From NCBI GenBank assembly GCA_965203055.1, contig OZ241863.1, positions 2,016,001-2,080,000 of the forward strand: a stretch of 64,000 nt of DNA. Direction: 5' to 3'. This stretch comes from Spirochaetia bacterium (GTDB lineage: Bacteria > Spirochaetota > Spirochaetia > SZUA-6 > Bin103). Every line of letters begins with the position of its first letter. The stretch's first letter is position 1. The notes under the pieces are model-generated. The model searched no databases. It had not been told where the DNA came from and worked only from the letters and a program-made list of their open reading frames with translations. This document shows positions 180 to 55,018 of this stretch, piece after piece. The position numbers and the translations under genes were made by a program.

Positions 180-502
180 TCATCCTGATTGTCGCGCTAC
201 AGGCCGGCCCGGGAAATGGCGGGACCAGCGCTGCCACGTTCTACCCAGGTAGTGCTCCGTCACCTCGGTCTGCGGAATCGGCTGCCCGTCCAGCCGTAGT
301 ATCGGCGGATCGAACCACCACATCTCGGGCGCGACGTCCGGATAGCCCGGCGCCAACCTGAGCAGGAGATCGGACCGGGCGGGACGCAACCCGTCCGGCA
401 GCGGAAATCATGCAGCACGAGACAGAGCATACCGTCTTCAATTGCTTCGCTGTATCTCACTTGCCGTGCTTCGAGGCACCCCCGGTCGTCACTTGGCAAC
501 AT
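180..502 (-). pseudogene. Prokaryotic E2/UBC-family protein (Prok-E2_E-like), frameshifted and probably 3'-truncated
   Basis: ATG at 502 with GGGAGG upstream gives MLPSDDRGCLEARQVRYSEAIEDGMLCLVLHDF. Adding one C at ~403-404 continues as PLPDGLRPARSDLLLRLAPGYPDVAPEMWWFDPP...YLGRTWQRWSRHF, matching the E2-family LPxGYPxxxP and WSRH motifs. Stops about 10 codons after WSRH. Confidence 0.7.
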
Positions 503-5500: not shown

Positions 5501-5622
5501 ACGCTACCTCCGGCGCCGCGCGCGGTCAAACGCGCCGAACCGACGCGCGAGTTTGACGTTGCCGCGGGCGGCGGCCACATTGACGACGGCATGAGTATCG
5601 TTGGCCGGCGAGATCGTTGGCG

Positions 5623-29730: not shown

Positions 29731-29734
29731 GCGC

Positions 29735-34756: not shown

Positions 34757-35745
34757 GGCACCGGAACAGCGTCGAGAATTGCGTTGACCAGGTCGTCGGC
34801 GGTGCGTTCCTCCGCCTCCGCTTCGTAGCTCACGATGACCCGATGGCGGAGCACGTCAGGCGCCATGGTCTTGACGTCCTGGGGCGTTACGTAGCCGCGC
34901 CCGTGCAGCAGCGCATAGGCGCGGGCCGCCAGGGCGAGGTAGATGGTGGCGCGCGGCGAGGCGCCGTACTCGATCAGCCCGGCCAGCCCGGCCAGTTCCG
35001 GACCGAACTGCGCCGGCTCGCGGGTGGCGCACACCAAGTCCACGAGGTACTCCTCCACCTGCTCATCGACGTAGATGCGCTCGACCAGGCCGCGCAGGCG
35101 GCGAAAGTCGTCCGGCTGCAGGACCGCGGCGACCGGCGCCAGCGCGGCCGTGCGCGCCATCTGCCGCAGGATGCGCAGTTCTTCTTCGCGGCTGGGGTAG
35201 GTCACCCGCAGCTTGAGCATGAAGCGGTCGACCTGCGCTTCCGGCAGCGGGTAGGTGCCCTCCTGTTCGATCGGGTTCTGGGTAGCGAGCACCATGAACG
35301 GATCGTCCAGCGGGTGGCTGGCGTCGCCGATGGTCACCTGCCGTTCCTGCATCGCCTCCAGCAAGGCGCTCTGGACCTTGGCCGGCGCGCGGTTGATCTC
35401 GTCGGCGAGGATGATGTTGGCGAAGATCGGGCCGCGCCTAGTGGTGAACTCACCGCTGCCCGGGTGGTACACCAGGGTGCCGATCAAGTCGGCGGGAAGC
35501 AGGTCCGGGGTAAACTGGATGCGGCGGAAGCGGGCGTCGACGGCCTGCGCCAGGGTGGTGATCGACAGGGTCTTGGCCAACCCCGGCACCCCTTCCACCA
35601 GCAGGTGCGCATTGCACAGCAGCCCGATCTGCAACCGTTCGATCAGGTAGCTCTGTCCGATGATCACCTGTTCGAGTTGCCGGCGCACCTCCTGCAACAA
35701 GCGGCTCTCGCGTTGCACCTCGCTGCCGATCTGTCCGACGTCCAC
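34753..35745 (-). CDS. moxR: MoxR family AAA+ ATPase
   Basis: EGVPGLAKT, RIQFTPDLLPAD, DEINRAPAKVQSALLEAM, ATQNPIEQEGTYPLPEAQVDRF, GASPR. Start GTG 35745 inferred. Confidence 0.95.
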   Translation of the reverse strand: MDVGQIGSEVQRESRLLQEVRRQLEQVIIGQSYLIERLQIGLLCNAHLLVEGVPGLAKTLSITTLAQAVDARFRRIQFTPDLLPADLIGTLVYHPGSGEFTTRRGPIFANIILADEINRAPAKVQSALLEAMQERQVTIGDASHPLDDPFMVLATQNPIEQEGTYPLPEAQVDRFMLKLRVTYPSREEELRILRQMARTAALAPVAAVLQPDDFRRLRGLVERIYVDEQVEEYLVDLVCATREPAQFGPELAGLAGLIEYGASPRATIYLALAARAYALLHGRGYVTPQDVKTMAPDVLRHRVIVSYEAEAEERTADDLVNAILDAVPVP

Positions 35746-35867
35746 TGGTCGATTTCGAATGTAGCGAACCGCGGCCGCCAACGGCAACACCGGCCGTGTA
35801 GCGGTTGCCGTCATCGGCAAGCTTCAGTAGCCGGGCGGCGGTCATCGGCTCGTTCTCGACCGCCGCG

Positions 35868-37641: not shown

Positions 37642-38418
37642 ATGGGGCCGTTCTTGAGTTCAACATTCCGTATTCAATACGAACGGTTACCCTGTAATTA
37701 CGGGAGTAACGAGGAGCGCATGACACTTGCCGATGTCGAGCTTTACGTCCGCAATTATTGTGCGACTGAGTTGCACGAAAACCGCGCTAAGACCGTCCGT
37801 CGATCCGCTCGTTTGTCCGCTCTTCATCTGGCTGAGTGGTTCGCCTCCAATTGGTGGCGGCTGATTTGGGAACTCTGGGCAAACGACGCCTGGATGAGAG
37901 CAAAGCAGGCCGCTCGTATGGTACGGCAAGCGTGGCACTTGGACGGCCCGGCGACAACTTCCATGATCGCCAACATATTCGCAATCAGAGAGTCGGACCT
38001 GTCCGATTGCATGGCGAGTCCGATTCGTCCGGTGTCAGCCGGATTTCGTATTGGCGAAGAACCGGACCGGATGCGCATTGCGTGGCACATACGGTCGCCG
38101 GCCGGTCGCCGGTTCTCGCTGGCTCGCATGGTGGCTGATCATCTGGTATCTCCTTCAGAGGAGAGGCTTCTGCCGGTCACCAGGACGGTGACCGGCAGAC
38201 AGCAATTTCAGCGAGCATTTGCCCAGGAATTCCTGTGCCCTTATGACGCACTTCGGGAGGTAATCGGCGGCTCACCGAGCGTGGATGACATAGAGTATGC
38301 GGCTGATTACTTTGCGGTCTCGACCTGGGTAGTCGTATGCGCCTTCGTCAATAACGGCGCGTTGCCGCAAGAGACACTCGCTGACTGGGGCGTGAGCTTG
38401 GCTACGCAGAACTGGTAG
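37642..38418 (+). CDS. Protein with C-terminal ImmA/IrrE-like domain lacking HExxH
   Basis: LAEWFASNWWRL N-terminal motif; RRFSLARMVADHL and QRAFAQEFLCP align by eye with the ImmA/IrrE RFTLAHELGH and ANxFAxxxLxP helices. Confidence 0.6.
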   Translation: MGPFLSSTFRIQYERLPCNYGSNEERMTLADVELYVRNYCATELHENRAKTVRRSARLSALHLAEWFASNWWRLIWELWANDAWMRAKQAARMVRQAWHLDGPATTSMIANIFAIRESDLSDCMASPIRPVSAGFRIGEEPDRMRIAWHIRSPAGRRFSLARMVADHLVSPSEERLLPVTRTVTGRQQFQRAFAQEFLCPYDALREVIGGSPSVDDIEYAADYFAVSTWVVVCAFVNNGALPQETLADWGVSLATQNW

Positions 38419-38423
38419 CTGGC

Positions 38424-39647
38424 ATGCTCGTCGAATTTTCCGTTGCCAACTTCAGATCGATCAAAGAGGAGGTACGCCTCAGTCTCGTGGCTGGTCCAGG
38501 CAAGGAGCACGCCAACTCGATCCTTACGGCCGAGAGTCGCGCCGAAACCGCCGCGCGGCCGCTCCGACTTCTGCCGTCCGCCGCGATCTACGGCGCGAAC
38601 GCGGCCGGCAAGACCAACGTGATTCGCGGCCTCAAGACGATGCATGACATCGTACTCGGCTCCGCCGCCCGCGGTCCTGCTGAACTCCCGGTGACCCCGT
38701 TCCGATTCGACCCGGCGTGCAGCGACCAACCGACGGCCTTCGAAGTGATGTGCATCGCCGACGGCGTTCGCTACCAGTACGGCTTCCGCGCGACCCGCAG
38801 CGAAGTAACTGAGGAGTGGCTCTATGCATGGCCGAGCGGACGGCTGCAAGTCTGGTTCGAGAGACGCAACGGGAAAGCGACCGGGGAGCCCTCATGGAAG
38901 CTTGGCGGAAAGCTCACGGGCGACCGGCAGGTCTGGAAGAGAGCAACTCGCCCGCAAGCCCTGTTCCTGGCAACGGCGGTCTCCCTCAACAGCACGCAAC
39001 TACGGCCGATCTTCGACTGGTTTCACAAGCGGCTCCATGTCGCCCGAGTCGAGAGATGGAGTCCCGTCTTCTCAGTGAACTACGCTAAGAACGGCGGAGC
39101 CGAAGTACTCGGCTTTCTCGCCGCGGCCGATCTTGCGGTAACAGGTCTGAGGATCGTAGAAAAGGAAATATCACCGGACCAATTTCCCGAAGAAATAGAG
39201 ATATTCTTGCAACATCAACCGAAAGAGGGACAGCAGGCGGAACTGGAAATGGCCGAGGAGTCGCACGGAACCCAGAAGATGTTTGCGCTTGCCGGTCCAT
39301 GGCTCGACACCCTGGCCAAAGGCAACGTCATCGTGTTCGATGAGCTGCACGATAACCTGCATCCCGCACTTGTCCGCTTTCTGGTCAGCCGGTTCCACAA
39401 TCCGACAACGAATCCGCACGGAGCGCAGCTCGTTTTCACGACGCACGATACGTCCATGCTCAATCGCGATTTGTTTCGGCCTGATCAGATCTGGCTCTGC
39501 GAGCGCAACGAACGCCTCGAAACCAGTCTCTTCCCGCTCAGCGACTTTCGGCCACGACGGGGTATCGAGAACCTGGAACGAGCATATCTGGCCGGCCGCT
39601 TCGGAGCGCTCCCTTACATCCGGTCAAGCGACCGGTCATCAGACTGA
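38424..39647 (+). CDS. AAA_21 / ABC-type ATPase (RloA-like)
   Basis: MLVEFSVANFRSI, YGANAAGKTN, ESHGT signature, FDELHDNLHP, QLVFTTHD, YLAGRFGALP. Confidence 0.92.
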   Translation: MLVEFSVANFRSIKEEVRLSLVAGPGKEHANSILTAESRAETAARPLRLLPSAAIYGANAAGKTNVIRGLKTMHDIVLGSAARGPAELPVTPFRFDPACSDQPTAFEVMCIADGVRYQYGFRATRSEVTEEWLYAWPSGRLQVWFERRNGKATGEPSWKLGGKLTGDRQVWKRATRPQALFLATAVSLNSTQLRPIFDWFHKRLHVARVERWSPVFSVNYAKNGGAEVLGFLAAADLAVTGLRIVEKEISPDQFPEEIEIFLQHQPKEGQQAELEMAEESHGTQKMFALAGPWLDTLAKGNVIVFDELHDNLHPALVRFLVSRFHNPTTNPHGAQLVFTTHDTSMLNRDLFRPDQIWLCERNERLETSLFPLSDFRPRRGIENLERAYLAGRFGALPYIRSSDRSSD

Positions 39648-39650
39648 CCG

Positions 39651-40265
39651 ATGGCGGGAAAACCACGCGGACGCCGTGAGATTAGACAGAGGAAGAAAAC
39701 CGCACGGGAGATATACAAGCGAGTGCTCATCGTCTGTGAGGGCAAGAAAACAGAGCCTAACTATTTCCGGGATTTGGTAGATCGGCGTCGGCTGATCACC
39801 GCCGAAGTTGTGATCGATGGATTCGGATATGATCCCAGTAAGCTGGTCGCAACCGCGAAGTGTTTGAAGAAGAAAGAGATACAACGAGGAGATTCATATG
39901 ATGAAGTCTATTGCGTCTTCGACCGTGACCAACATGCACACTTCCAAAAGGCGTCTCGAGATGCCCAGAGCGCCAAGTTGAAGCTGGCCCGCTCCTGGCC
40001 GTGCTTCGAATACTGGCTGGTTTTGCATTTCGTCTATCATCGCGAGCCTTACTACCAATCGCGGTATTGCGTAAGGCACCTCAAGAAGTATCTGTACCGC
40101 TACACGAAGCGCATGGCCGGCGTGTACAAGAACCTGGAAGACCGACTGGAAACGGCGAAGTCGAATGCGAAGTGTGCCCTATCACACGCGGAGACAACAG
40201 GAGTACACGACCCGTCGACAGAAGTGCATCTCCTCGTCGCGTACCTGCAAGACCTCAAACCCTGA
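39651..40265 (+). CDS. rloB: RloB family protein
   Basis: LIVCEGKKTEPNYF, VYCVFDRD, SWPCFEYWLVLHF, DPSTEVHLLV. Confidence 0.92.
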   Translation: MAGKPRGRREIRQRKKTAREIYKRVLIVCEGKKTEPNYFRDLVDRRRLITAEVVIDGFGYDPSKLVATAKCLKKKEIQRGDSYDEVYCVFDRDQHAHFQKASRDAQSAKLKLARSWPCFEYWLVLHFVYHREPYYQSRYCVRHLKKYLYRYTKRMAGVYKNLEDRLETAKSNAKCALSHAETTGVHDPSTEVHLLVAYLQDLKP

Positions 40266-42745: not shown

Positions 42746-43735
42746 TCATCGCTCGAAGCCGCACTTGGCGGCGATCGCCTTCGCAAGCCGCTCGAAGTCC
42801 TCGTAGCAATCCTGCACCGCGTAGATGTGGCCGCCCAGGGCGCCGTCGGCCGCCCGCAGGTGGAACATCGGCTTGCGCGCCTCCCGAGCCATCGGCATCA
42901 GGCTGGGGTAATGCTTCAGCGTAGCCAGGCAGTGCGGGTCGTCGTCGATCGAGGAGACGCCCGGTCCGGTCCCATCGAGCGCTTCCTTGCGATACACGGC
43001 GGGAATGCGCCGGCTCCACCGCTGATACGCCAGCACGGGCCGGCCGGCCCTGACCGCGTTCCGGATCACGACGTACCCGGCCGGCGTGATCTCCGCCGAG
43101 GGCAGCGGCAGGCCCGGATCGCCGGGCGTCCGGTCGAGCCGATCCTGCCACTCCGTACGCCAGGCGCGCAGGGTGGGACCGAGGTTGCGGAGCCCCTGCA
43201 ACGAGAACAGGTCCGGGGCGAGCGGCACGACGACGAAGTCGGCGGCGATGATCGCCGCCCGGTTGATTGCCCCCAGATTGGGGCCGACGTCGACCAGCAC
43301 CACGTCCGCATCCTGCTTCCTGGCAGCCTGGAGAATCGTTCGGTAGAGCGCTGACTCGGCCCGAAAGGCGGATTCGTCGCCGTCCAGGCAGGCCGGCCAC
43401 GCCGCGGAGAGCTTCGCCTCGAAACGGGACAGACCCAGGTCGCCGACCACCAGGCCGCAGTTCGACGCGATTTCCTCCACGTGCGGTTCGCGGATGTCAC
43501 CAAGGCCCCTCAGAATCGGAGAGATCGCCCCGAGAATGGTCTGATGATGATCGCCGTCGGGCCACAGTTCTTCGAGCCGCTCCTCTTCGAGGAACATGGC
43601 GCTCAGGTTCGCTTGCGGGTCCAGGTCCGCGGCGACCACCGAAACGCCCCGTTCGGCGTACATCGAGGCGAGGTGGTAGACCAGCGACGTCTTTCCGACG
43701 CCCCCCTTGTTATTGAAGAACGCGATCGTCTTCAC
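42746..43735 (-). CDS. ParA family ATPase (AAA_31)
   Basis: FNNKGGVGKT, DLDPQANLS, VDVGPNLGAINR, PDLFSLQGL; GTGA overlap with the upstream gene. Confidence 0.92.
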   Translation of the reverse strand: MKTIAFFNNKGGVGKTSLVYHLASMYAERGVSVVAADLDPQANLSAMFLEEERLEELWPDGDHHQTILGAISPILRGLGDIREPHVEEIASNCGLVVGDLGLSRFEAKLSAAWPACLDGDESAFRAESALYRTILQAARKQDADVVLVDVGPNLGAINRAAIIAADFVVVPLAPDLFSLQGLRNLGPTLRAWRTEWQDRLDRTPGDPGLPLPSAEITPAGYVVIRNAVRAGRPVLAYQRWSRRIPAVYRKEALDGTGPGVSSIDDDPHCLATLKHYPSLMPMAREARKPMFHLRAADGALGGHIYAVQDCYEDFERLAKAIAAKCGFER

Positions 43736-44916
43736 GTCTTGCTCCGAATGGTCACCAGCACGTGCGACGGCTCGAACCTGAACTCCGCCGTCGGGTTGCC
43801 GTTGCGGCGCAGCGCCTCCTGCGCGCGGATCACGCCGCGGCCGAACGCGTTGACGTACCCTAACGTCGCCATCGCCTCCGCGATCACCGGATTGCGGTAG
43901 TCCGTCTGCGCCGGAAAGTTCTCCGGGGAGGCCATTCCATACAGCCCGCCGGGGCTCTGAATCTCGATCCGATCATCGAACCAATTGAAGCGCACCGGCG
44001 CGTTCGATTCGTACGAGCGGTGCATGATAGCGTTGAGCAACAATTCGCGGACCGCCACCGCCGGGTAGTCGACGTGGGTCCGCTCCCGCAACATCGATTC
44101 GGCGACCGGACGCGCTTGCGTCTGAAGCGAAACATACGCCCGAATCTCGCGCAGCACCGAGAGCAAATCGCCGCTGAACCTTGCTTCGTCGAGCACCTCG
44201 TCCGCCATCGTCGTTCCCGCCCAGCGCACGAACTGGAGCCACGCTCCCGGAATCCACCGTAGAGGCTGCCTGGCGAACAGCAGGACGCCGGCGTGCGTAG
44301 GGCAGTCCGCCGCCAAGTCGTAGCAGCGAAGCGACGCCATCTGTTCCCTGAGATCGCGTTCGTTCTCCTCGATCACGTCTCGGCTGACCGCGGCGGGCAG
44401 GTAGCCCACCAGGAACAGGTCCGGGACCAGATCATCTAACGTGCAGCCGCGGCAGGGCCGCGCATCGAAGGTCCTCTGCAGAGCGGTCCGCCGCTCGGCC
44501 AGCAGCCGCTCCTCTTGCTGGTTCGCGCCGCGCCGGGACGGACCGACCCGAATCCACACCCGGCCCTTGTAGCGGACGGGCGGAAGGTCGGACGGCATGA
44601 CTTCCACGACCGCCACCTCACCCCCGGGCAGCACCTGCTTCTGCACCGTCAACGCGGGAGGCGGTTCCAGGTTGACGTTCGCGCGCAGATCCGCGAGTCT
44701 CCGCAACAGCCGGTCGCCAACGGTCAGGCCGCTTGCCTTGCCGGCGTCGTCGACCCCCACCAGGAGATAGCCGGGCTCCCGGTGATTCGGGAAGTCGTTG
44801 GCGAAGGCGCAGATCGCCTCACCGAACTTGTCCGTATCGTTCACGGCGACGGTCATCTCGACGCGGTCGGATTCGTGATCCGCCATCAGCGCGCGCAACT
44901 GGCCGGTGGTCAGCAT
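43732..44916 (-). CDS. Schlafen/AlbA_2 domain + HATPase_c_4 (RecG C-terminal-like) protein
   Basis: ESDRVE...ICAFAN...LLVGVDD N-terminal domain; RELLLNAIMHRSY, DDRIEIQSPGG, YRNPVIA, FGRGV. Confidence 0.88.
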   Translation of the reverse strand: MLTTGQLRALMADHESDRVEMTVAVNDTDKFGEAICAFANDFPNHREPGYLLVGVDDAGKASGLTVGDRLLRRLADLRANVNLEPPPALTVQKQVLPGGEVAVVEVMPSDLPPVRYKGRVWIRVGPSRRGANQQEERLLAERRTALQRTFDARPCRGCTLDDLVPDLFLVGYLPAAVSRDVIEENERDLREQMASLRCYDLAADCPTHAGVLLFARQPLRWIPGAWLQFVRWAGTTMADEVLDEARFSGDLLSVLREIRAYVSLQTQARPVAESMLRERTHVDYPAVAVRELLLNAIMHRSYESNAPVRFNWFDDRIEIQSPGGLYGMASPENFPAQTDYRNPVIAEAMATLGYVNAFGRGVIRAQEALRRNGNPTAEFRFEPSHVLVTIRSKT

Positions 44917-45112
44917 CGGGTCCGATTATGGCGGGCGACCGCTCGCCCAACAACTCCAGGCCCAGGCGCCGCCCCACGGCTTCGATCATGCCTCGCTAGG
45001 GCCGCCGCCCTCAGGTGGCGCTCGCGCGGATTGGGTTGGCTGGCTGGGCTGCTGCCTGCTGTTCGGCGGTTGACGCCGGCCGCTCCGTCTGCTACTACGC
45101 TGCCAGCCGCAC

Positions 45113-45538
45113 ATGAGCCGCCTGCAGAAGAGCAACGGTGACGACTTCCCCGAGGCCGCCGAGAAGCACCTCGAGGACGCAGTGGTTCTTATCGCCGGTG
45201 CTCGCTATGACGGCACTGCTTACCTGGTCGGATACGTGGTAGAGTGCACCTTGAAGACTCTCATTCAAATGCAAACAGGGCGGTTCCATCATTCGCACGA
45301 CCTTCAGGGCCTCGATAGCACGCTAGGGACTATCGCCGCTCAAGCGGATCGCAGGACGAAGCAGATGTACGCATCCGCCAGGAAGATTCTGAAGGGCGCT
45401 GATATACTTGCATGGAAACCGGGAATGCGTTACCAAGCTGCCTACGTCACTGGTTCCACCGCCGGAAAGTGGCTTCGAGAGGCTACGGCGATCTACTCCC
45501 GAATCATTGGCGAGCTGAAAAAGGACGGAAAGATCTGA
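45113..45538 (+). CDS. HEPN-like domain protein
   Basis: 141 aa. KHLEDA..L...RYDGTAYLVGYVVECTLK...HSHDL...W...MRY pattern of HEPN-fold proteins. Confidence 0.75.
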   Translation: MSRLQKSNGDDFPEAAEKHLEDAVVLIAGARYDGTAYLVGYVVECTLKTLIQMQTGRFHHSHDLQGLDSTLGTIAAQADRRTKQMYASARKILKGADILAWKPGMRYQAAYVTGSTAGKWLREATAIYSRIIGELKKDGKI

Positions 45539-46839
45539 TGATCCATGCCGACCAGGCTCACCGCCAGGCACGGGATTCTCTGACCGAATTTCTCCGGGAC
45601 AAGACGAGTACATGGCGCATCCTGTTGATCTTCGATTTGTTCTACCAACTCCGAATCATCCTGTGGTGCCCGAAGCAGAACTGGGAATCGTCCCGAACGG
45701 AGATCGACGAGACACTTAAGCAAGCATCCTCGGCCTATTGGTCCGGCGCGGTGCTCAAGGGCTGCGGACCGAAGGAATATCCCGACGGGCCGTGGCAGAA
45801 CGATGCATGGCAACAGGCCGCTGCCGTTCCGGAGACGAACAAACTGCGGATCGTGGAACGGCAGCGCACCAAGGAGGGCTGGTTCGAGGCCCCCGCCGAA
45901 CCTCCGTGGGCGGTTCTGAACGACAATCCGGCAATCGTCTCGTTCTATTCATTCAAGGGCGGCGTTGGCCGATCGACCGCGCTCGCGGCGGCGGCGCTGC
46001 ACCTGGCTGCCGCCGGCGAGCGCGTAGCGGTGGTCGACTTCGATCTCGATGCCCCGGGCGTCGGTTTTCTGTTGGCAGGACACGACGGCGCCACCGCGCA
46101 GTGGGGCGTCGCCGACTACCTGTTGGAGCAGCCGATCGTCGCCGAATACGGAGCCGGCTCCGGACCGGACCTCGCGGATTACTTCCACCGGTGTCCGACT
46201 TCGCTCTTCGCCGGGACGGGCGAGATCTCGGTGTTTCCAGCCGGGTCCGCCGATCGGCGCTACGTGGAAAAGCTGGCGCGACTGGACTACGGTGTTTCGC
46301 GCGGTCAGACGCATCCCTTCGTGCAACTCCTCCTGGAAATCCGCCAGCATCTCCATCCGCACTGGATACTCATCGACGCCCGCGCCGGACTCGGCAACGC
46401 ATCCGGCTTCGTGATGGGGGGCCTGTGCCACCTCCACGTGCTGGCAGCGACCTTGGCGGACGCGAGCTGGCGCGGTCTGGAGATGATTCTGGACCGGCTC
46501 GGAGCAGACCGGGTGCAGGCAGGGCAACCTCAAGCCGAATGCGTAATGGCGGCGGCGATGGTGCCTCGATCCCAGGAACGTCAATATCAGGAGTTGGTCG
46601 CGGCGTTCACCGACCGCGCCCGCGACGTGTTCAGCAACCACTACTACGCCGAGCGGGAACAGGAGGACAAGTTCTGGTCGTTGGATGACGTGGAGAGCAT
46701 CGACGCCCCCCACGTTCCGGTCGTCCTGCCATACGACGAGCGCCTCGCGCTGTTTCGCGAATTGAGCGAAGTGAGCAACGTTCTGCTCGATGGCGAGCCC
46801 TACAGGCAGCTCGCGGAACGGGTGCGATCGCGACGATGA
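45538..46839 (+). CDS. ParA/MinD-like ATPase, KGGVGR variant, with N-terminal extension
   Basis: TGATG overlap with the HEPN stop; SFYSFKGGVGRST, VDFDLDAPG, ILIDARAG. Confidence 0.85.
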   Translation: MIHADQAHRQARDSLTEFLRDKTSTWRILLIFDLFYQLRIILWCPKQNWESSRTEIDETLKQASSAYWSGAVLKGCGPKEYPDGPWQNDAWQQAAAVPETNKLRIVERQRTKEGWFEAPAEPPWAVLNDNPAIVSFYSFKGGVGRSTALAAAALHLAAAGERVAVVDFDLDAPGVGFLLAGHDGATAQWGVADYLLEQPIVAEYGAGSGPDLADYFHRCPTSLFAGTGEISVFPAGSADRRYVEKLARLDYGVSRGQTHPFVQLLLEIRQHLHPHWILIDARAGLGNASGFVMGGLCHLHVLAATLADASWRGLEMILDRLGADRVQAGQPQAECVMAAAMVPRSQERQYQELVAAFTDRARDVFSNHYYAEREQEDKFWSLDDVESIDAPHVPVVLPYDERLALFRELSEVSNVLLDGEPYRQLAERVRSRR

Positions 46840-48416
46840 GCCGGAGACTCACCAAGCAGGCCTGCGCGGAGTTGCGTACCGAGCTCCGTGATCTTGGCCG
46901 CGGCCAAGCCGAAGCGGTAACTCCTGAGCCCGTTAGCCGCCGCCTGTATCCGGTACCGGAACATCTCAGGGCCCTCGACCCGAACGTAGTGCTGGTCGTC
47001 GGTCCGCGCGGCTCGGGAAAGAGCGAGCTGTTCAACACGTTCTTCAAGCACAGCGAACTCCGCGACACCATCTTGCGGTACGCCGCGACGCCCGTCCGGC
47101 TGATGATTCAGTCCTCGTCCGTAGCGTGGAAGCCGGCGTACCCGGCCGGAACGGAGTTTCCGGATAGTGCGGAATTGGAGCGGCGCATCGATTCGGACGC
47201 GCAAGCGAAGACGCTCTGGCACGTCATGCTGACACGAAGCCTCAACAACGAGTTCTCCACTTCGGTGAAGAAGCAGCTCAGACCTTTGACGGTGCCGACG
47301 GCGGCAGCCCTTGGCCCGATTTTAAACGCGATGCAGGATCTGCAGGTGAATCCCACGGCTGCGCTGGACTTGCTGGAAAAACGCTTGCATCGGGAGGACG
47401 GCTGGATCTTCGTCGGATACGACGAGCTGGACACACTGGGCGGTTCCAATTGGGACCTGATGGCCAGGCTGGTTCGCGGACTCGTTGCCTTCTGGTCCGA
47501 ATACGGCCGGCGGTGGCAGCGAATCCGGGCCAAGATCTTCCTGCGGTCCGACCTGTTTCGCCGTCACTCCGGCATGGGCACCGCTGACTTCGCCAAGCTG
47601 GCAGCCAACCGGTCCGAGTTGGCCTGGTCCGACGCCAACCTGCTCGGCATGCTAGTGAAGCGCATCGCCAACACCTCCGCGCCTCTGGCCGATTACTGCC
47701 GCGGAGCCAGAATCGCATTCGCTCAGGACCCGGCGCTTGGACTGCTGCCGAAGATCGGGCGGCCCGAGCACGCATATCCGCTGCTGGAGCGCATAGCCGG
47801 AGAGTACATGGGAGCCGGCCGAAAGAAGGGCTACGTGCGCAACTGGGTTCTCGATCATCTGCGCGACGGGAACGCGCAGGTCTCGCCCCGGACGCTGGTA
47901 CGCCTGTTCGAGCAGGCAGCTACGAAAGACGCCTCACATCGAACGCTGCGCGCGCCGAAGCTGCTGCATCCGACTGCCTTGCGGCTGGCGCTCGATGACG
48001 TATCCCGCGATCACGTGACGCAAGCGATCAGCAGCGAGTGGCCATGGCTCGAAGGCGTGCGGGACCGTCTCCGCGGACAGCCGCTCGTCCCATGGTCCCG
48101 CGAGGAAATCGTGAGCTTGTTGGAACGCGAATGGGACGGCGCGTGGGGTTCAGGCGAAAACCCCGACTTCCGGCCGCCGGAGGAACGGCCCGAACGTCTC
48201 GTAGATTACTTGGTCGAGCTCGGCATCTTCCGCCGGCGTTCGGATGACCGGATCGACGTGCCAGACCTCTATCTGCTTGGCCTCGACCTCCGCCGAAAGG
48301 GCGGCGTGCGACGGCGTATCGCGCCGCGGCGCCGCCAACCCGGCGGCGTAAGGTCGTCCGCTCGTCAGTCCGGGCCGGGGCTGCCGCGGCCGTCGGTCAG
48401 TTCCGGGAACTCGTAG
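46836..48416 (+). CDS. P-loop ATPase (Sll1717-like)
   Basis: ATGA overlap; Walker A VGPRGSGKS, Walker B VGYDELD, KIFLRSDL, SPR, C-terminal wHTH-like LVELGIF...VPDLY...RKGG. Confidence 0.82.
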   Translation: MSRRLTKQACAELRTELRDLGRGQAEAVTPEPVSRRLYPVPEHLRALDPNVVLVVGPRGSGKSELFNTFFKHSELRDTILRYAATPVRLMIQSSSVAWKPAYPAGTEFPDSAELERRIDSDAQAKTLWHVMLTRSLNNEFSTSVKKQLRPLTVPTAAALGPILNAMQDLQVNPTAALDLLEKRLHREDGWIFVGYDELDTLGGSNWDLMARLVRGLVAFWSEYGRRWQRIRAKIFLRSDLFRRHSGMGTADFAKLAANRSELAWSDANLLGMLVKRIANTSAPLADYCRGARIAFAQDPALGLLPKIGRPEHAYPLLERIAGEYMGAGRKKGYVRNWVLDHLRDGNAQVSPRTLVRLFEQAATKDASHRTLRAPKLLHPTALRLALDDVSRDHVTQAISSEWPWLEGVRDRLRGQPLVPWSREEIVSLLEREWDGAWGSGENPDFRPPEERPERLVDYLVELGIFRRRSDDRIDVPDLYLLGLDLRRKGGVRRRIAPRRRQPGGVRSSARQSGPGLPRPSVSSGNS

Positions 48417-48826
48417 GTGACCCGCCCGTTGTCGGAGACCTCCATGCGCACCCGCACGCCGTCGCAGAGCTGATCCATGTACGCCTCGGCCTGCTCCAGC
48501 GACATACCGGTCTCCATCACCACCTGGGAAACCGTGACCCGCCCCCCGTTCTGGTACGCCAGCCGGAACACCCGGCTGTCGAACGAGCGCCGGCCGAACG
48601 GACTCGGCACGCCGAACGGCGCGCGCGGTTCGGCGGCCACGCTGTCGTCCGCCGGGTAGCGGTAGACCCCGCCGCGCCCGCGCAGATGAGGCCGATCGTC
48701 CTCCGGTTCGTCCTGGATGCGGCGAAACAGCGCCGTGCCTACGCGCAGGGCAGCGAACATCAGCAGGAAAGGCGCCAGCAGCGCAAGAAAGCCGAACGGT
48801 CCCCAGCCGAAGAACAACATGACCAT
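48365..48826 (-). CDS. Hypothetical membrane protein with C-terminal winged-helix-like domain
   Basis: N-terminal hydrophobic segment; VFRLAYQNGGRVTVSQVVMETGMSLEQAEAYM...YEFPEL. Confidence 0.7.
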   Translation of the reverse strand: MVMLFFGWGPFGFLALLAPFLLMFAALRVGTALFRRIQDEPEDDRPHLRGRGGVYRYPADDSVAAEPRAPFGVPSPFGRRSFDSRVFRLAYQNGGRVTVSQVVMETGMSLEQAEAYMDQLCDGVRVRMEVSDNGRVTYEFPELTDGRGSPGPD

Positions 48827-48988
48827 GACGAACGTACCACACGGCCGCCCCGCAATCAACCCGCCCGGCCGCCCGCCCGCCCGCCCCGCCCGGCGGGCAC
48901 GGCACGGCGGCGGCCGCGGACCGCCGACCGATCGGGCTCCAGGCCAATGGCGGCGGCGGGCGCCAATTCGCTGCGCCGCTTACCTCAG

Positions 48989-50581
48989 TTACATCCCCCA
49001 CACCGTGATGGACGCGCCGGCGCCCGCCTCCCGGCGGCGGAACAGCTTCTCCCGCCACTCCTTGCCGGGCGTGCGGTCGAAGATCACCAAGTGGCCTTCG
49101 GCGGCCCCGCATCGGTCCAGGTAGCCGCGGGTCTGCGCCACCCCCTCGCGGATGGCGCGATCCAGGCCGCCGCGCAGCAGCTTGCACTCGATCACCATGC
49201 GCCGGGTCCGCTCCGGCGGCGCGCCGGCCGGCCATACGATCAGCAGGTCGGTGCGCATCCGCCCCAGCCCATACTCGCGCTCCACCCGGCCACCGGAGTT
49301 GACGATGCGCTGCAGGAACGCCTGCAGCAGCAACTGCGGCCCCGCCTCCCGGTACTGGAAGCGCTCGAGCCAGTGCTCGGAGTGCTCGCGGAAGAACTCC
49401 TGAAACGCCGCCAGCAGCTTGCTCAGGTTCAGTCCGGCGTCCGGTTCCACGTACCAGGCGGGGTCGTGCGGCAGGAACTCCTGGGTGGTCCACGTGATGG
49501 CGCGCGGAATGACCTCCCGGTAGATCGGATTTGCGACGCGCACCGGCGGATCGACCGCCACCAGCCCCAGGTCGCGCACGTACTGCAGATCGTCGGCGCG
49601 GATGGTCCCGGGCGCCGGGCTGCCGCTCAGCAGCGGGCCGATCACCCGCCGCACGCGCTCCTCCTGCAGCTTGTCGGCGAGCTGGTCCAGATGGGTCTCG
49701 CGGCGCAGGATGAGGCGCTCGCGGGCGGCGTGGACCGCTTCGGCGCTGATGGTGCGGGTGCGGTCGCGCCCCGCTTCGCCGCCGGAGCACGCCTCCCGGG
49801 CCAGCGCGTTGACCAGCCACGGCTGCCCGGCGGTCAACTCCCACACCGCCTGCAGGGCCGCGTCGGCGAACCTTTGTCCGGTTTCGGCGGTGTGCTGAGC
49901 GAGCAGCTCCCCTGTTTCGGTCTGCGCAAAGTCGCCCAGGCGCAACGACGCGGCCTTGACGTTGAACGCGCTGCCGCCGGTGATGACGTCGTTCTGCGCC
50001 GCGGAACGGATGCGGTAATCGCGCACGTCGCGCACGCCGCACAGGATCACGCTCTGCGGGAAGCCGTCCGGCCGCTCGTCGTAGCCGGCGCGCAACTGGC
50101 GCAGCACCGCGATCAGCGTGTCGCCGACCAGCGCGTCGATCTCATCGATCAGCAGCACCAGCGGCGTCGGGTCGGCCTCCGCCCAGCGCACCAGCACTTC
50201 CTGAAGCGCCCCTTCCGGGCCGAAGGTCGTCAGAATGCCGGGCCAGAGGCTCGCCAGCGACTCGTCGCCCAGGGTCCGGCGCGCCCGCGTCCCCAACGCC
50301 CCCAGAATGGCGCGCATCCCCCGCCCCACGTGCTCGCGGGCCGCCTGGCCGATCTCGACGTTCACGTAGACGCAGCGGTAGGCGCCCGCGGTCCCGCTGT
50401 TCAGCAGGTCGCGCAACGCCAGCAGGGCGGAGGTCTTGCCGGTCTGCCGGGGCGCGTGCAGCACGAAGTAGCGCTTGTCGCGGATCAGCGCCAGCACCTC
50501 GTCCAGATTCACCCGCTGCAGCGGCGGAATGCAGTAATGATCGGCGGCCACCACCGGCCCCGAAGTGTTGAAGAAACGCAT
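48989..50581 (-). CDS. AAA-like ATPase with C-terminal PD-(D/E)xK-like domain (paralog 2)
   Basis: MRFFNTSGP, HAPRQTGKT, LLIDEID, EREYGLGRMRTDLL...VIECK, ITVWGM; shares long identical peptides with 5623-7206. Confidence 0.88.
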   Translation of the reverse strand: MRFFNTSGPVVAADHYCIPPLQRVNLDEVLALIRDKRYFVLHAPRQTGKTSALLALRDLLNSGTAGAYRCVYVNVEIGQAAREHVGRGMRAILGALGTRARRTLGDESLASLWPGILTTFGPEGALQEVLVRWAEADPTPLVLLIDEIDALVGDTLIAVLRQLRAGYDERPDGFPQSVILCGVRDVRDYRIRSAAQNDVITGGSAFNVKAASLRLGDFAQTETGELLAQHTAETGQRFADAALQAVWELTAGQPWLVNALAREACSGGEAGRDRTRTISAEAVHAARERLILRRETHLDQLADKLQEERVRRVIGPLLSGSPAPGTIRADDLQYVRDLGLVAVDPPVRVANPIYREVIPRAITWTTQEFLPHDPAWYVEPDAGLNLSKLLAAFQEFFREHSEHWLERFQYREAGPQLLLQAFLQRIVNSGGRVEREYGLGRMRTDLLIVWPAGAPPERTRRMVIECKLLRGGLDRAIREGVAQTRGYLDRCGAAEGHLVIFDRTPGKEWREKLFRRREAGAGASITVWGM

Positions 50582-50781
50582 CGCTCCCAATCGGCGTCTG
50601 ACTGATCTCAGCGCCGGAATCCCGCCGCCGCTGCCCACGGAAATACCTGACAACTCATTTTCTCGGTGCAAGGTCTCGACATTTGGCCAACGGTATCCTA
50701 TATCTGATCTGACAAAGTGAGTAGCGCGCGCGCCGCGGCATGCCGTGATCGATGCTGCGCGAGCTGCCGGAGGAGAGGAAT

Positions 50782-51093
50782 ATGGGCGAAAAGACGACGA
50801 CGGTCAGCGCTCTGCGCCAGCAACTGATCGAAAAGGCGACCGCGGACCGCGAGTTTCGCAACCAATTGATGGCGGACCCCAGGACCGCGATCGAGGCGGA
50901 AACCGGCCTGACCGTGCCCTCCGAGTTCAACGTCGAGGTGCACCAGGACACGGCGACTACCGGTCACTTGATCCTGCCGCCCTCCGCCGAGCTCGGGGAA
51001 GCCGACCTGGCGCAGGCCGCCGGCGGCATCGACTGGTCCGGAGTGGGGCAATGGGAATATGGCAGGACCTACGACGAGGTGATGAACTCGTAG
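50782..51093 (+). CDS. NHLP (nitrile hydratase-like leader peptide) RiPP precursor
   Basis: Strong RBS GGAGGAGAGG. LIEKATADREFRNQLMADPRTAIE...VEVHQDT...HLILPP...ELGEADLAQAAGG leader with double-Gly site, then core IDWSGVGQWEYGRTYDEVMNS. Confidence 0.9.
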   Translation: MGEKTTTVSALRQQLIEKATADREFRNQLMADPRTAIEAETGLTVPSEFNVEVHQDTATTGHLILPPSAELGEADLAQAAGGIDWSGVGQWEYGRTYDEVMNS

Positions 51094-54000
51094 CCGGCAC
51101 GGCCGCGGCGCGGGCTTCGGCGGCGGCGCGGCCGGCGTTGAGCGCGAGCAGGCGGGCGAGCGCTTCGTCGCGGACCGCGTCGGGCCAGCGGTAGCGGCAG
51201 GGTTTCTTCTTGCGGCCCCAGGCGGCCTCGTCGATCGCATAGTCGAGGAGGAAGTCGCAGGCGGTGGGAAGGTCGCTCCAGCCGTAGGCGTCGAGCACGG
51301 CGCGGTCCATGGCGGCATGCAGTTCGCGGAGCTTGGCGATGCGCGGGTCGGTCTCGTAGAGGTCGTGGAAGCGGTTGTAGGTCCGCGTCATGCCTTCGCC
51401 GTTGTCCACCATGAGCGCCGCGCGGTAGTCGTAGTACGCTTTGCCGGCGGCTTCGAGGGCGGGATGAGTGTCCCGGCCTTCCGGGAACGGGAAGGTCTCG
51501 AAGCAGTCGGAGGGAGTATACGTGAGTCGGTCTTCCAGTGAAGACCCGAGAAATCGGGACCATATCTCATGAATTCGAGATTGGAGCACACAGAATAATT
51601 GGCAGCTCTCGCTGGGAAAGATGACGAGTCGATCACTGTACACCGCCGCTGACCGAAGGAACGCGAACCCCGTGTGCTCACTGACTCGAGAGATTGCCAG
51701 CACTCGGTCCAGGCCGGCGATGGCGCCGCCATAGAGTTCCTTGGCGGTCGATCCGTAGCGCCACCAGAACTTGGCGCGTTTCCTGCCGATGGCGTTCCTG
51801 CTGAGCTTGGCGCGTTCCGGCTTGACCCGCTCCTCGACAATCGCCATCAAGTCCGGCCAGCGCCGACGGCACTCAGCCTCGCTTCGCTCGCCGAAGTTGA
51901 TGACGTAACGATGGTGCGCGTGAGTCGGGCTGGTGTTCACCTCCTCGCCGCCGACGTAGGGGAAGATCACCTCGCGGTTGCGCGGGTCCTGATCGATCAG
52001 CCGCCGCATCTCGGCGAGCGGTGATGCCACTCCCTTCCGGTCGGTGTCGTCGAAGGTGAATCCCATGCCGAGCACGATGCTGCCCTGAAAGCTCTTGCCG
52101 GCGTTGGCCGCCAGCCGCACCGGATCGGCATGCCCGCCCCGATGAAACAGAAACGCCGTGACGCGCTCCACCGGGGCGCCGTCGAGCGTCCTCCTGCCCG
52201 ACGACTTGCCCTTCTCTATGTGTACCACGCTGACGACGACCGCGGCATCGCCAGGCCATTTGACCCGCTTGGTGGCGCGGTAGATATGACCGCCATGCTC
52301 GCAGATCCAGCGCAGGCCGCTGGAACGGGTGTCACCCTGGGCGATGGTGTTGGTGGCGATCAGGCCGAACGCGCCGCCGCCGCGCAGCAGGTCGAACGCG
52401 CGCCGGTAGAAGTGCGCCACCAGGTCGGCGTTGCCGTGGCTCTGCGCGTGCAGTTCCTTGAGCCAGCTCGGATAGCCGGCGACGTTGCCGGCGGCAACGT
52501 TGTTCTTACCCGCGAACGGCGGGTTGCCGACGAAGCCGTCGAAGCCCGGGTTCGCGCGCTCGAACACCTCGGGAAACTCGATTTCCCAGTGGAACGGCGC
52601 GAACGGCTTTTCTTGAGTGTTACGGCGCGTCTTCAACTCCGCGGCGTGGCGCCACCCCTGCCGCGTGAGAATCGCTTCCTGGTACGCCTCCAGACGCGCC
52701 GCGCGCTCCTTCGGCTTCGAGCCCTCGAAGAACGCCGCCAGCGTCAGATCGCCGAACCGCCGCACCTCCGCCAGCGCGTCCTGCGCGCGGCGCCACAGCG
52801 TCTGCAACTGCCGGTCGGTCACGGTGTCGTCCGCTTCCCGAATCCGGCGCCGCAACTCAGATGCCTCCGCCAACTTCTCGCGCACCCCGAAGCCGGCCAG
52901 GATCGGCTGTCCGCCCTGCCAGTGCAGCGCTTCGATCTGCCGCCGCGTCAGCCCCACGAGCGAATCGCCGCGGCGGAAGGCGTGGTCCACGAAGGTGAAC
53001 GGATGGTCGCGCGCCAGCGTGCTCAGCCACAGCGACACCTTGGCCAAGTCTACCGCCATCGGGTTGCGGTCGATGCCGTACAGACACTTCTGGGCCACCA
53101 GCCGGCGCGCGAAGGTCACCTCGTCCTCATCCGCCGGGATGTCAGGCAGCGCTCCGTGCGCGCCCCACGCCTCGATCAGCGCGTCGGCAAGCTGGCGGCA
53201 GGTCTCCACCAGAAACGCCCCCGATCCCATCGCCGGATCGCAGATCTTGAGATCGAGGACCTGCTCCGGGCGCGGCGGGCCGCCGTCCTCGCCGCGCAGC
53301 CGCTCCAGCAGCGGCGCCAGCGTATGGCGCACGATCGGCTCGGTCAGCTCCCGCGGCGTGTAGTGCGAGCCGGAACGGCGCCGCTCCTCGTTGGGCTGCA
53401 GCACCAGCCCGCCGCGGGGCACCAGGTCCGGCGTCGCGGCGTGATCCAGCACCCGGTCCAGCACCGCGTGCAGGTCGTTCACCGTGTGCGCCGCGCGCAG
53501 CCCCTTCGCGACCGCGGCGCTGACTGGGCGGTCCGCCCGCTCCTGCAGCCAGCGTCCGCGGCGCGCGGGGGGCTGCGCCAGCAGCGCGTCCAGGTCGATG
53601 GTGGTGGGCGCCCCCAACTTCTTCGCCGGCTTGATCGCCAGCGAGCGCCCGGTCGCGGTCTCCAGGCGAAACCCCATGATCGTCTCGTACACCGAGCCGA
53701 TCTGCTCCACGTCCAGCGTCCGGTAGGAGAGTCGCTCCCCGTCCAGCACCAGCAGCTTTTCCAGCACCCGGTAGACCACCCCGTCCGACACCCGCGGCGG
53801 CTCCAGCCGCGCGTTCCGCTGCCGCGACCCGCTGCCGCGGCGGCCCTCCAGGAACCGGTAGCGGTCCGGGTCGAACAGCGCGCCGCGGCGCTCCGGCAGA
53901 CTCACCGCGCCGCCGGTGCGGTCGGCCGGCACCCCGTCGTGGAGCAGGCGAAACAGCACCACCAACTGCGCCCAGGCGCCGTAGCGCTGATCCATCGTGT

Positions 54001-55018
54001 CCGGGTAGGCCGCGGCGTCCTTGCGCAGCCGCCGGTAGAGGCCGCCCAGCAAGTAGTGGCGCGCGAAGGTCTCGTCCTTTGGCAGCAGGCCGCGCTCCTC
54101 CGCGTACAGCAGGAACACCAGCCGCAGGATCACGGTGAGCAGCCCGCGGTAGATGGCGTTGCGGTCCCCGCCGGCCGCCAGCGGCTCGCTCAGCAGCGCG
54201 CCGTCGGTGGCGGCATGGGCGTTCTGGAAGCCGCGCACCAGTTCGTACAGCGCATGCAGCACCTGCTCGGCGAGGCGCTCGGAAACTTCGTTCTGATACA
54301 GCCGGCTGTCGGCCAGCACCGCGGTGAGGCGTTCATGACGCGGCAGCGCCAGCAGGCGCTGCTCGGAGAGGAGCAGGTGCAGGGCGGAGCAGAGCGGGCG
54401 CCCGGCGGTGGTGAGCAGGTCGGCGAAGCGGAAATCGATCCAGCCGGAACTCTCGCCGTGCGGGGCGGAGATCAGGCGCAGCGCAACGCCGTTGACCAGC
54501 ACGCCGGCGCGCACCCCGGTGGCGCGCAGCAGGCGTTCCGCGCGCCCCTGGGCGGATGCGTCCAGCCCGCCGGCGCCGGGCGCCGGGCGGTCGAACTCCT
54601 GGCCGGCGGCCAGCACCTGCACCAGCAGTTGCCACGCCGAGTCGCCGTTGCCGGGGTCGCGTTCGCGCACCGCGAAGTCGGGGCGCAGGGTCTCGCCGTA
54701 ATCGGGCAACGGCAGCGTGAGCTCTTCAGGGATCGGAGTTTCTGCAGTGAAGCCGGCGTAGCCCCGGGGCGAGAAGCCCCAGCCGAGCACCGCGGCGGCG
54801 AACTCGCGGAAGTCGCGGATGCACGGCTGCGGGTTGCCGCCCGGCGTGAGCGCCCGTTCCTCGGCGCAGCCGGCGAGCAGCGCCTGCCGGTGGGTATCCT
54901 GGCGGTTGACGAACGCCCCCGCCTTGAGCAGCGCCGGCGGCGACACCACCAGACCGTGCGGCTGGATGAACCCCAGCCATTCCAGGTGCGCGCGCGTGTT
55001 CGGATCGGCAGCAGGCAT
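50957..55018 (-). CDS. Type IIG/Eco57I-MmeI-like N6-adenine DNA methyltransferase (DISARM DrmMI-like)
   Basis: LDVEQIGSVYE, SGSHYTP, motif I DPAMGSG, FHWEIEFPEVF, motif IV GNPPF, YTPSDCFETFPFP, LARLLALN. The last ~45 codons run antisense through the NHLP gene. Confidence 0.88.
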   Translation of the reverse strand: MPAADPNTRAHLEWLGFIQPHGLVVSPPALLKAGAFVNRQDTHRQALLAGCAEERALTPGGNPQPCIRDFREFAAAVLGWGFSPRGYAGFTAETPIPEELTLPLPDYGETLRPDFAVRERDPGNGDSAWQLLVQVLAAGQEFDRPAPGAGGLDASAQGRAERLLRATGVRAGVLVNGVALRLISAPHGESSGWIDFRFADLLTTAGRPLCSALHLLLSEQRLLALPRHERLTAVLADSRLYQNEVSERLAEQVLHALYELVRGFQNAHAATDGALLSEPLAAGGDRNAIYRGLLTVILRLVFLLYAEERGLLPKDETFARHYLLGGLYRRLRKDAAAYPDTMDQRYGAWAQLVVLFRLLHDGVPADRTGGAVSLPERRGALFDPDRYRFLEGRRGSGSRQRNARLEPPRVSDGVVYRVLEKLLVLDGERLSYRTLDVEQIGSVYETIMGFRLETATGRSLAIKPAKKLGAPTTIDLDALLAQPPARRGRWLQERADRPVSAAVAKGLRAAHTVNDLHAVLDRVLDHAATPDLVPRGGLVLQPNEERRRSGSHYTPRELTEPIVRHTLAPLLERLRGEDGGPPRPEQVLDLKICDPAMGSGAFLVETCRQLADALIEAWGAHGALPDIPADEDEVTFARRLVAQKCLYGIDRNPMAVDLAKVSLWLSTLARDHPFTFVDHAFRRGDSLVGLTRRQIEALHWQGGQPILAGFGVREKLAEASELRRRIREADDTVTDRQLQTLWRRAQDALAEVRRFGDLTLAAFFEGSKPKERAARLEAYQEAILTRQGWRHAAELKTRRNTQEKPFAPFHWEIEFPEVFERANPGFDGFVGNPPFAGKNNVAAGNVAGYPSWLKELHAQSHGNADLVAHFYRRAFDLLRGGGAFGLIATNTIAQGDTRSSGLRWICEHGGHIYRATKRVKWPGDAAVVVSVVHIEKGKSSGRRTLDGAPVERVTAFLFHRGGHADPVRLAANAGKSFQGSIVLGMGFTFDDTDRKGVASPLAEMRRLIDQDPRNREVIFPYVGGEEVNTSPTHAHHRYVINFGERSEAECRRRWPDLMAIVEERVKPERAKLSRNAIGRKRAKFWWRYGSTAKELYGGAIAGLDRVLAISRVSEHTGFAFLRSAAVYSDRLVIFPSESCQLFCVLQSRIHEIWSRFLGSSLEDRLTYTPSDCFETFPFPEGRDTHPALEAAGKAYYDYRAALMVDNGEGMTRTYNRFHDLYETDPRIAKLRELHAAMDRAVLDAYGWSDLPTACDFLLDYAIDEAAWGRKKKPCRYRWPDAVRDEALARLLALNAGRAAAEARAAAVPATSSSPRRRSCHIPIAPLRTSRCRRRPAPGRLPRARRRAAGSSDR

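Follow-up and report, generated by a model that had tools for sequence, protein, structure and literature searches.

We analysed a stretch of 64,000 nucleotides from the genome of a Spirochaetia bacterium (GenBank assembly GCA_965203055.1, contig OZ241863.1, positions 2,016,001 to 2,080,000 of the forward strand), hereafter the window, and focused on a three-gene operon within it. Its genes, which we call A, B and C, are predicted to encode a small HEPN protein followed by two ATPases. The features of the operon are listed here by position in the window.

45113–45538, plus strand: gene A, 141 amino acids (aa), small HEPN protein, PDC-M28A, putatively of the AF0298-like "HEPN-T" type
45536–45540, plus strand: TGATG stop/start overlap at the A/B junction, read from the sequence
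45538–46839, plus strand: gene B, 433 aa, ParA/MinD-fold ATPase, PDC-M28B, NCBIfam KGGVGR-motif variant AAA ATPase
45955–45975, plus strand: KGGVGRS, variant deviant Walker A motif of B (residues 140–146), with the signature Lys kept and the P-loop Lys replaced by Arg
46836–46839, plus strand: ATGA start/stop overlap at the B/C junction, read from the sequence
46836–48416, plus strand: gene C, 526 aa, predicted ORC/Cdc6-STAND-like AAA+ ATPase, PDC-M28C, NCBIfam Sll1717 family
47001–47024, plus strand: GPRGSGKS, Walker A motif of C, with G56, G59, G61 and K62 invariant in 29 sequences

The stop codon of A (TGA, 45536–45538) and the start codon of B (ATG, 45538–45540) have one base in common, and the start codon of C (46836–46838) overlaps the stop codon of B (46837–46839), so the coupling of the three genes proposed by an earlier, sequence-only reading of this DNA is borne out at both junctions. 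The start of B within TGATG is supported because homologues begin at the same Met. Coding overlaps of this kind are common across related triads and are not special to the window copy. Among 59 complete related triads, the A/B junction was a 1-nucleotide (nt) overlap in 25 and a 4-nt overlap in 22 (47 of 59 together), and the B/C junction was a 4-nt overlap in 35 and a 1-nt overlap in two, with no intervening stop in another 10. A scan of 44700–48900 found no sigma-70-like promoter and two terminator-like sites, both of which lie within genes.

All three proteins matched profiles of one candidate phage-defence system, PDC-M28, in PADLOC-DB v2.0.0. Protein A matched PDC-M28A (E 3.6e-11, 41.7 bits, profile positions 3–127 of 138), B matched PDC-M28B (E 4.4e-54, positions 4–407 of 438) and C matched PDC-M28C (E 1.2e-69, positions 4–478 of 480). 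The genes are adjacent, on one strand and in the order A-B-C, which is the PDC-M28 gene order, and we are highly confident that the operon is an intact member of this group. Profile hidden Markov models (HMMs) also placed each protein in a broader family, namely Pfam PF05168 for A and the NCBIfam families NF047398 and NF047389 for B and C. The sequence-only reading knew of no named system with this layout. That claim does not survive these matches; the layout is not novel, because PDC-M28 is already catalogued in PADLOC, and both ATPases carry NCBIfam names. The cassette itself is real, intact and well conserved. According to the preprint that introduced them, PDC systems were proposed because their genes sit inside BREX, DISARM and type I restriction–modification (R-M) systems, and they entered PADLOC as candidates without testing (Payne, Hughes, Fineran and Jackson, bioRxiv 10.1101/2024.01.29.577857). 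When other authors tried PADLOC candidates, four of the eight reported protected Escherichia coli, and M28 was outside those eight (PMC12881386).

The three-gene order was retained in most related loci. In GTDB representative genomes we found 207 relatives, kept 80 loci, and derived an HMM for each of the three proteins from these loci. A was present in 73 of them and C in 77, with C adjacent in 75, and 68 of the 80 showed strict A-B-C order, adjacent and on one strand, which supports a functional unit. Exceptions were mostly fragments, contig ends or insertions. Triads occurred in Spirochaetia, Acidobacteriota, Gemmatimonadota, Myxococcota, Chloroflexota, Bacillota, Bacteroidota, Pseudomonadota and Cyanobacteria, and the lineages represented included Vicinamibacterales, Longimicrobiales, KSB1, Elusimicrobia, Lachnospiraceae, Paenibacillus, Chryseobacterium and Comamonas. 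Of the loci without A, one held only a remnant of it (L011), one had an AlbA_2/HATPase_c_4 gene directly upstream (L024), and one had a gene for a large DUF3883-like protein upstream (L045); no recurrent alternative effector was seen in such loci. In two Vicinamibacterales loci (L026 and L041), A and C were displaced or split from B by about 1.2–1.5 kb, which suggests insertions inside the cassette.

The distribution of the cassette fits a horizontally moving accessory unit, since it is patchy within the phylum, has atypical third-codon-position GC content (GC3), occurs on plasmids, and has a divergent second copy in the same genome. NF047398 scored above its cut-off in only five of 401 genomes of the window's phylum, including the window's own. 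GC3 was 0.66, 0.77 and 0.78 for A, B and C, compared with a median of 0.87 for the 33 other genes of the window. On plasmids, the cassette was found in 14 of 72,556 records, including those of Enterobacter, Thiodictyon, Calothrix and Nostoc; the phage collection contained no match to B. The second triad of the genome (C1:4387900–4391080) encodes proteins that share only 24–28% identity with their counterparts in the window, and it scored better than the window copy against PDC-M28A, B and C (153, 457 and 585 bits, respectively).

Gene C encodes a P-loop ATPase with intact nucleotide-binding motifs. It scored 90.7 bits against NF047389, "P-loop ATPase, Sll1717 family" (cut-off 75), a family also matched by 29 of 29 relatives, and scored below the cut-offs of Pfam AAA_16 and ATPase_2. 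In addition to the invariant Walker A positions, C carries a Walker B-like YDELD at residues 195–199, in which D196, L198 and D199 were invariant in 29 sequences. A structural model of C had a mean predicted local distance difference test (pLDDT) score of 88.4, with the last 30 residues disordered. Because Foldseek matched this model to BrxC, Cdc6/ORC and archaeal AAA+ ATPases (best match the BREX ATPase BrxC, E 1.3e-7), we assign C as a predicted ORC/Cdc6-STAND-like AAA+ ATPase with a winged-helix-like C-terminus. The disordered tail (residues 497–526, 48327–48416) had pLDDT below 50, is missing from aligned homologues, and overlaps a convergent open reading frame (ORF; 48365–48859) by 52 nt. 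Because of this overlap and its absence from homologues, the tail may be an extension that arose locally by read-through.

Comparison across loci gives good evidence that B and C work as one unit, since they are fused at 12 of 80 loci and also in database proteins of about 890 aa. The fusion in a Chryseobacterium aquaticum isolate is an ORF of 893 residues with no internal stop. A search for longer proteins returned 51 at E≤1e-10, mostly of about 890 aa and combining ParA-type with ORC-CDC6-like domains; some of these fusion proteins are named "P-loop ATPase, Sll1717 family" by NCBI.

Gene B belongs to a large family defined by its unusual P-loop. The protein scored 149.5 bits against NF047398, "KGGVGR-motif variant AAA ATPase" (cut-off 90), which 29 of 29 relatives also matched. 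The sequence-only reading had noted that the Walker A motif reads KGGVGRS rather than KGGVGKT. We confirm this and find that Arg replaces the P-loop Lys in all relatives compared: KGGxGR[ST]T is kept without exception in 25 close relatives and in 29 diverse ones. Across the diverse set, the invariant residues were K140, G141, G142, G144, R145, T147, D167, D169, D280, R282 and G284. A word-index search gave 1118 family proteins at E≤1e-5 among 8000 candidates scored, and an exhaustive profile search gave 3,883 clusters at 50% identity and E≤1e-30. About 130 residues at the N-terminus of B form a domain that is extra relative to the ParA/MinD fold.

The fold of B raises the question of a housekeeping role, in which B would be the ATPase of a ParA-type positioning or partition system and the other two proteins its accessories. 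B does carry the ParA/MinD fold signature, with Pfam ParA and CbiA matches and PDB profile matches to Mrp/NBP35, ArsA, ParA and MinD. However, it reached only about 20–25 bits on the NCBIfam MinD, ParA and Mrp models, whose cut-offs are 180–510 (for example, 24.3 against 212.9 for minD_bact and 21.9 against 180 for ParA_partition), and it has no ParB or other centromere-binding protein as a partner. The patchy family, the two divergent copies in one genome, the atypical GC3 and the linkage of B to a HEPN protein and an ORC/STAND-like ATPase all argue in the same direction, and we consider a partition role very improbable.

The small protein A is HEPN-like, as the sequence-only reading had proposed. 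It scored 27.3 bits against Pfam PF05168 (gathering threshold 22), and an AlphaFold2 model made with 29 diverse homologues (pLDDT 91.2) has the four-helix up-and-down HEPN fold. The best seven PDB matches to this model by Foldseek were all HEPN domains; the HEPN domain of Csm6 (10.3), HepT toxins (about 8–9) and AbiV (8.4) scored lower in the structure comparison. A sequence-profile search of the PDB gave a single weak HEPN match (1wol, E 0.016). The strings noted earlier in A are present (R57-F-H-H-S-H62, H62-D63-L64 and R106-Y107), but the R-x4-H string is not conserved, H62 being its only residue that relatives keep. E44, C45, R106 and Y107 were invariant in 29 of 29 relatives and K48 and H62 were kept in 28, while an Arg with Rx4-5H spacing before His62 occurred in just four of 29 and the column of R57 itself held Arg in two of 29. 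A His five to seven residues past the invariant R106 was absent in 27 of 29. Judged from this pattern, the set of E44, C45, K48, H62, R106 and Y107 fits the alternative site of AF0298-like HEPN-T proteins. For these and for AbiV, a Glu of helix 2, a loop His and the motif Arg have been suggested as an alternative RNase site (Anantharaman 2013, PMC3710099), and lactococcal AbiV has been shown experimentally to be an RNase that cleaves rRNA (bioRxiv 10.1101/2024.05.05.592566).

Several relatives of the operon are embedded in known defence systems. In one locus (L015) the cassette is flanked by PglX and PglZ inside a BREX-1 operon, in another (L056) it lies between HmaB and HmaC, and on the Thiodictyon plasmid it lies within an operon annotated by RefSeq as BREX-2. 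On cyanobacterial plasmids it stands beside type I or type III restriction genes, and in the window it lies between AbiL genes and a DrmMI-like methyltransferase gene. The preprint describes embedding of this kind as the route by which functional defence systems had come to light (Payne et al., bioRxiv 10.1101/2024.01.29.577857).

The best overall explanation, in which we have slightly better than even confidence, is that the operon is a PDC-M28 member, a mobile three-protein cassette, with gating of a HEPN RNase by B and C as the working model. The interpretation offered by the sequence-only reading is thereby supported in part. An anti-phage function of the cassette is probable; the part of this explanation in which the HEPN protein is an RNase effector gated by the two ATPases is tentative, and we doubt it somewhat more than we trust it. 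Under this model, C, with its Walker A and B motifs intact, would be the sensor of an infection cue or a nucleotide switch, and B, fused or bound to C, would be an ATP-binding dimerisation switch or clamp with slow or no hydrolysis. Together they would keep A inactive until infection. Once released or activated, A would act as a metal-independent RNase through a non-canonical HEPN-T site, putatively formed by Glu44 of helix 2, His62 in the loop between helices 2 and 3, and Arg106, and the outcome would be growth arrest or abortive infection.

The same genes could instead form a toxin–antitoxin (TA) or addiction module, with the HEPN protein as toxin and the ParA-like ATPase, together with C, as a protein antitoxin that acts by nucleotide-dependent binding or modification and so stabilises an island or plasmid. 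Plasmid copies are consistent with this, including one on a conjugative IncF plasmid, where the neighbours of the cassette are further TA genes as well as an integrase and a transposase. So is Tyr107, which is invariant next to Arg106. In HepT, a Tyr beside the catalytic motif is modified by MntA, and we liken it to Tyr107 of A. There is also a published precedent, a dyad of a HEPN protein (MAE_18760 family) and a ParA/Soj-like ATPase that was predicted to be a TA system with the ATPase as antitoxin, acting via conformational change or phosphorylation (Anantharaman et al. 2013, PMC3710099). However, the MAE_18760 family is listed there as keeping Rx4-6H, which is not conserved in A, and the nearly constant third gene, adjacent in 75 of 80 loci, would be superfluous for a plain TA pair. 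Embedding in BREX and Hma operons points to defence, and TA and abortive-infection functions are not mutually exclusive. Overall, we regard a TA module as unlikely.

Returning to the explanation of the operon as a PDC-M28 defence cassette, several observations weigh against it. Pfam HEPN was reached at E≤0.001 by only 17 of 29 relatives of A, and A could be non-catalytic, since the canonical Rx4-6H motif is not conserved. A Protein Atlas search with residues 1–128 of B, its N-terminal domain, gave no usable match and no fold could be assigned. Replacement of the Walker A Lys by Arg usually leaves nucleotide binding and cripples hydrolysis, which is general background on P-loop ATPases and not a result of this analysis. 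A full-text literature search returned no paper testing PDC-M28 and none relevant on KGGVGR or Sll1717, and a literature search on HEPN with a ParA-like ATPase in defence likewise gave nothing relevant.

The flanks of the cassette likewise gave no statistical support for defence islands. We compared ORFs flanking 30 diverse triad loci with PADLOC at E≤1e-10, taking 19 randomly chosen windows from the genome of this bacterium as control. At least one PADLOC match was found at 14 of 30 triad loci and in nine of 19 random windows, so that the enrichment for which the sequence-only reading had suggested a check did not appear in this crude test. By batch, matches were found at 10 of the first 16 loci and at only four of the other 14; this second batch, to which the most distant loci belonged, gave mostly generic matches. 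We note that the control comes from one defence-rich genome and is ill suited to other phyla. What speaks for defence is the set of embedded instances and the reasoning of the preprint, not flank statistics.

One neighbour of the operon in the window, a DrmMI-like gene, bears on a further alternative. Three neighbours are listed here.

38424–40265, plus strand: AbiL pair, AbiLi (AAA_21 ATPase, 307 bits) and AbiLii (RloB, 99 bits)
43732–44916, minus strand: gene with Schlafen AlbA_2 and HATPase_c_4 domains (Pfam), a divergent neighbour that is possibly associated with the cassette but not core
50957–55018, minus strand: DrmMI-like/MmeI-like type IIG methyltransferase gene (1289 bits), two genes from the cassette

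A second DrmMI-like gene (G000:C1:4383968–4387885; L108:2969–6886) is directly convergent with the second triad of the genome, and its product is 90% identical over 1294 residues to that of the window gene, compared with 24–28% for the triad proteins. Another triad, at locus L009, is also near a DrmMI-like gene. These associations agree with a rival reading that makes the cassette an accessory or a regulator of systems built on a methyltransferase (BREX, DISARM-like, Hma or R-M) and not an autonomous system; B and C would act on DNA or on proteins of the host system, and the HEPN protein would be a non-catalytic nucleotide- or RNA-binding adaptor. The location of the cassette inside BREX-1, BREX-2 and Hma operons and the BrxC match of C are consistent with such a role, as is the missing canonical motif in A, given that non-catalytic HEPN domains are described in PMC3710099. 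However, 16 of the 30 scanned loci had no flanking PADLOC match, the cassette often standing alone, and the partner systems differ (BREX-1, BREX-2, Hma, and type I and III R-M), which disfavours a specific partnership. The invariance of E44 and R106 and the near-invariance of H62 in A suggest a catalytic site. We consider this alternative quite improbable.

We also considered DISARM class 1, which calls for DrmMI with DrmA, DrmB and either DrmC or DrmD in one locus, and rejected it, as neither copy of the DrmMI-like gene has DrmA, DrmB or DrmC adjacent and housekeeping genes lie beyond the window copy. A DruE/DrmA-like helicase is encoded 37 kb from the window DrmMI-like gene. In this helicase region (7296–14074, plus strand), a 272-aa sacsin/HATPase-like protein matches the N-terminal part of Tiamat TmtA. 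The next gene encodes a DruE-like helicase of 1989 aa, whose domains are DEAD, Helicase_C, an MrfA Zn-binding (DUF1998-like) domain and, at the C-terminus, Peptidase S24. The pair may be a Druantia-like or DISARM-like helicase module.

The AlbA_2/HATPase_c_4 gene overlaps by 4 nt a ParA gene with a canonical KGGVGKT motif (42746–43735, minus strand). In 11 of the 80 loci an AlbA_2 homologue lies upstream of the triad, and the AlbA_2/ParA pair recurs upstream of the Hma-embedded triad (L056:2–1962, E 1.9e-75 and 3.2e-123). The pair may have a regulatory role or be a two-gene module in its own right.

Other parts of the window hold further conflict-related and unrelated genes. A 258-aa gene without a functional assignment precedes the AbiL pair, and GC3 is low in all three genes of this set (37642–40265, plus strand; 0.63–0.71). 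Two overlapping AAA_16 genes at 489–4711 (minus strand), the larger encoding 994 aa with TPR repeats, have GC3 of 0.65–0.76 and look like a STAND-like conflict module. Proteins with a common Pfam pattern of AAA_22, AAA_35 and AAA_16 are encoded at 5617–7206 (plus strand) and 48989–50671 (minus strand), the latter between the triad and the DrmMI-like gene. A 1852-aa bacterial alpha-2-macroglobulin gene (14094–19652, minus strand) and a MoxR (AAA_3)-DUF58-VWA/BatA-BatD cluster (27898–35820, minus strand) are also present, and the cluster looks like a Bat aerotolerance-type operon. The window's genome is unusually rich in defence genes. Six control loci from it (L092, L093, L094, L099, L102 and L107) held Shango SngA/SngB, HmaB, HmaC, PDC-S01, a PDC-M38A/AbiLi-like ATPase and several type I specificity subunits.

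A bolder version of the PDC-M28 explanation, which we think unlikely, is that this would be the first defence system with a HEPN-T RNase, using a non-canonical Glu/His/Arg site, gated by a composite NTPase. In this version, C, as an ORC/STAND-like sensor, would be joined to B, as a ParA-fold switch, either by physical contact or through gene fusion. The universal Lys-to-Arg change in the P-loop of B would turn it into an ATP-locked clamp, or into a BY-kinase-like enzyme that modifies Tyr107 next to the catalytic Arg. The latter would parallel the AMPylation of a HepT Tyr by MntA, but with a P-loop enzyme.

If PDC-M28 works, it would add an NTPase-gated HEPN system to bacterial immune mechanisms and provide a natural P-loop ATPase family with Arg fixed in place of the Walker A Lys. 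The conserved residues offer handles for mutation (E44, H62, R106 and Y107 in A; K140, R145, D167/D169 and D280 in B; K62 and D196/D199 in C). Other handles are the natural fusions of B with C, which speak for a complex of the two, the instances embedded in BREX-1, BREX-2 and Hma, and a genome with two divergent copies. The details that are new to PDC-M28 are the conservation of gene order, the B-C fusions, the invariant KGGxGR[ST]T, the residue set of A, the ORC/STAND-like character predicted for C, the embedded instances and the second copy.

Compared with known systems, the operon differs from PDC-M28 in nothing essential, and the window copy is a divergent member (A reaching merely 41.7 bits). 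With respect to the embedding logic behind PDC systems, the window copy is not itself embedded but lies two genes from a DrmMI-like gene, whereas relatives are embedded in BREX and Hma operons. The nearest printed precedent is the dyad of an MAE_18760 HEPN protein and a ParA/Soj-like ATPase, which is alike in having a small HEPN gene beside a SIMIBI-type ATPase proposed to control the HEPN RNase; going by its published description, it is set apart by the PF05168/HEPN-T-like HEPN without conserved Rx4-6H and by the third ATPase found here. HEPN-MNT (HepT-MntA) type II/VII TA systems include a nucleotidyltransferase partner, and here, as the sequence-only reading had stated, none is present, with no such domain detected by Pfam in ten proteins scanned in and around the operon. 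AbiV, the HEPN abortive-infection RNase of Lactococcus, is restrained by an RNA (abiV2) rather than by ATPases and has no detectable sequence similarity to A. Among deviant-Walker-A ATPases, B resembles MinD, ParA and Mrp in the KGG start of the P-loop with its signature Lys, the DxD switch and the Walker B Asp, but every member of its family has Arg for the P-loop Lys and an additional N-terminal domain of about 130 residues. B thus has neither the KGGxxK[ST] motif nor the equivalog-level scores of ParA and MinD partition and division ATPases. Finally, C is like ORC/Cdc6, archaeal ATPase_2 (PF01637) and STAND/BrxC-type AAA+ proteins in its predicted AAA+ core, lid and winged-helix-like C-terminus, while its sequence similarity to solved structures in the PDB profile search is confined to the P-loop.

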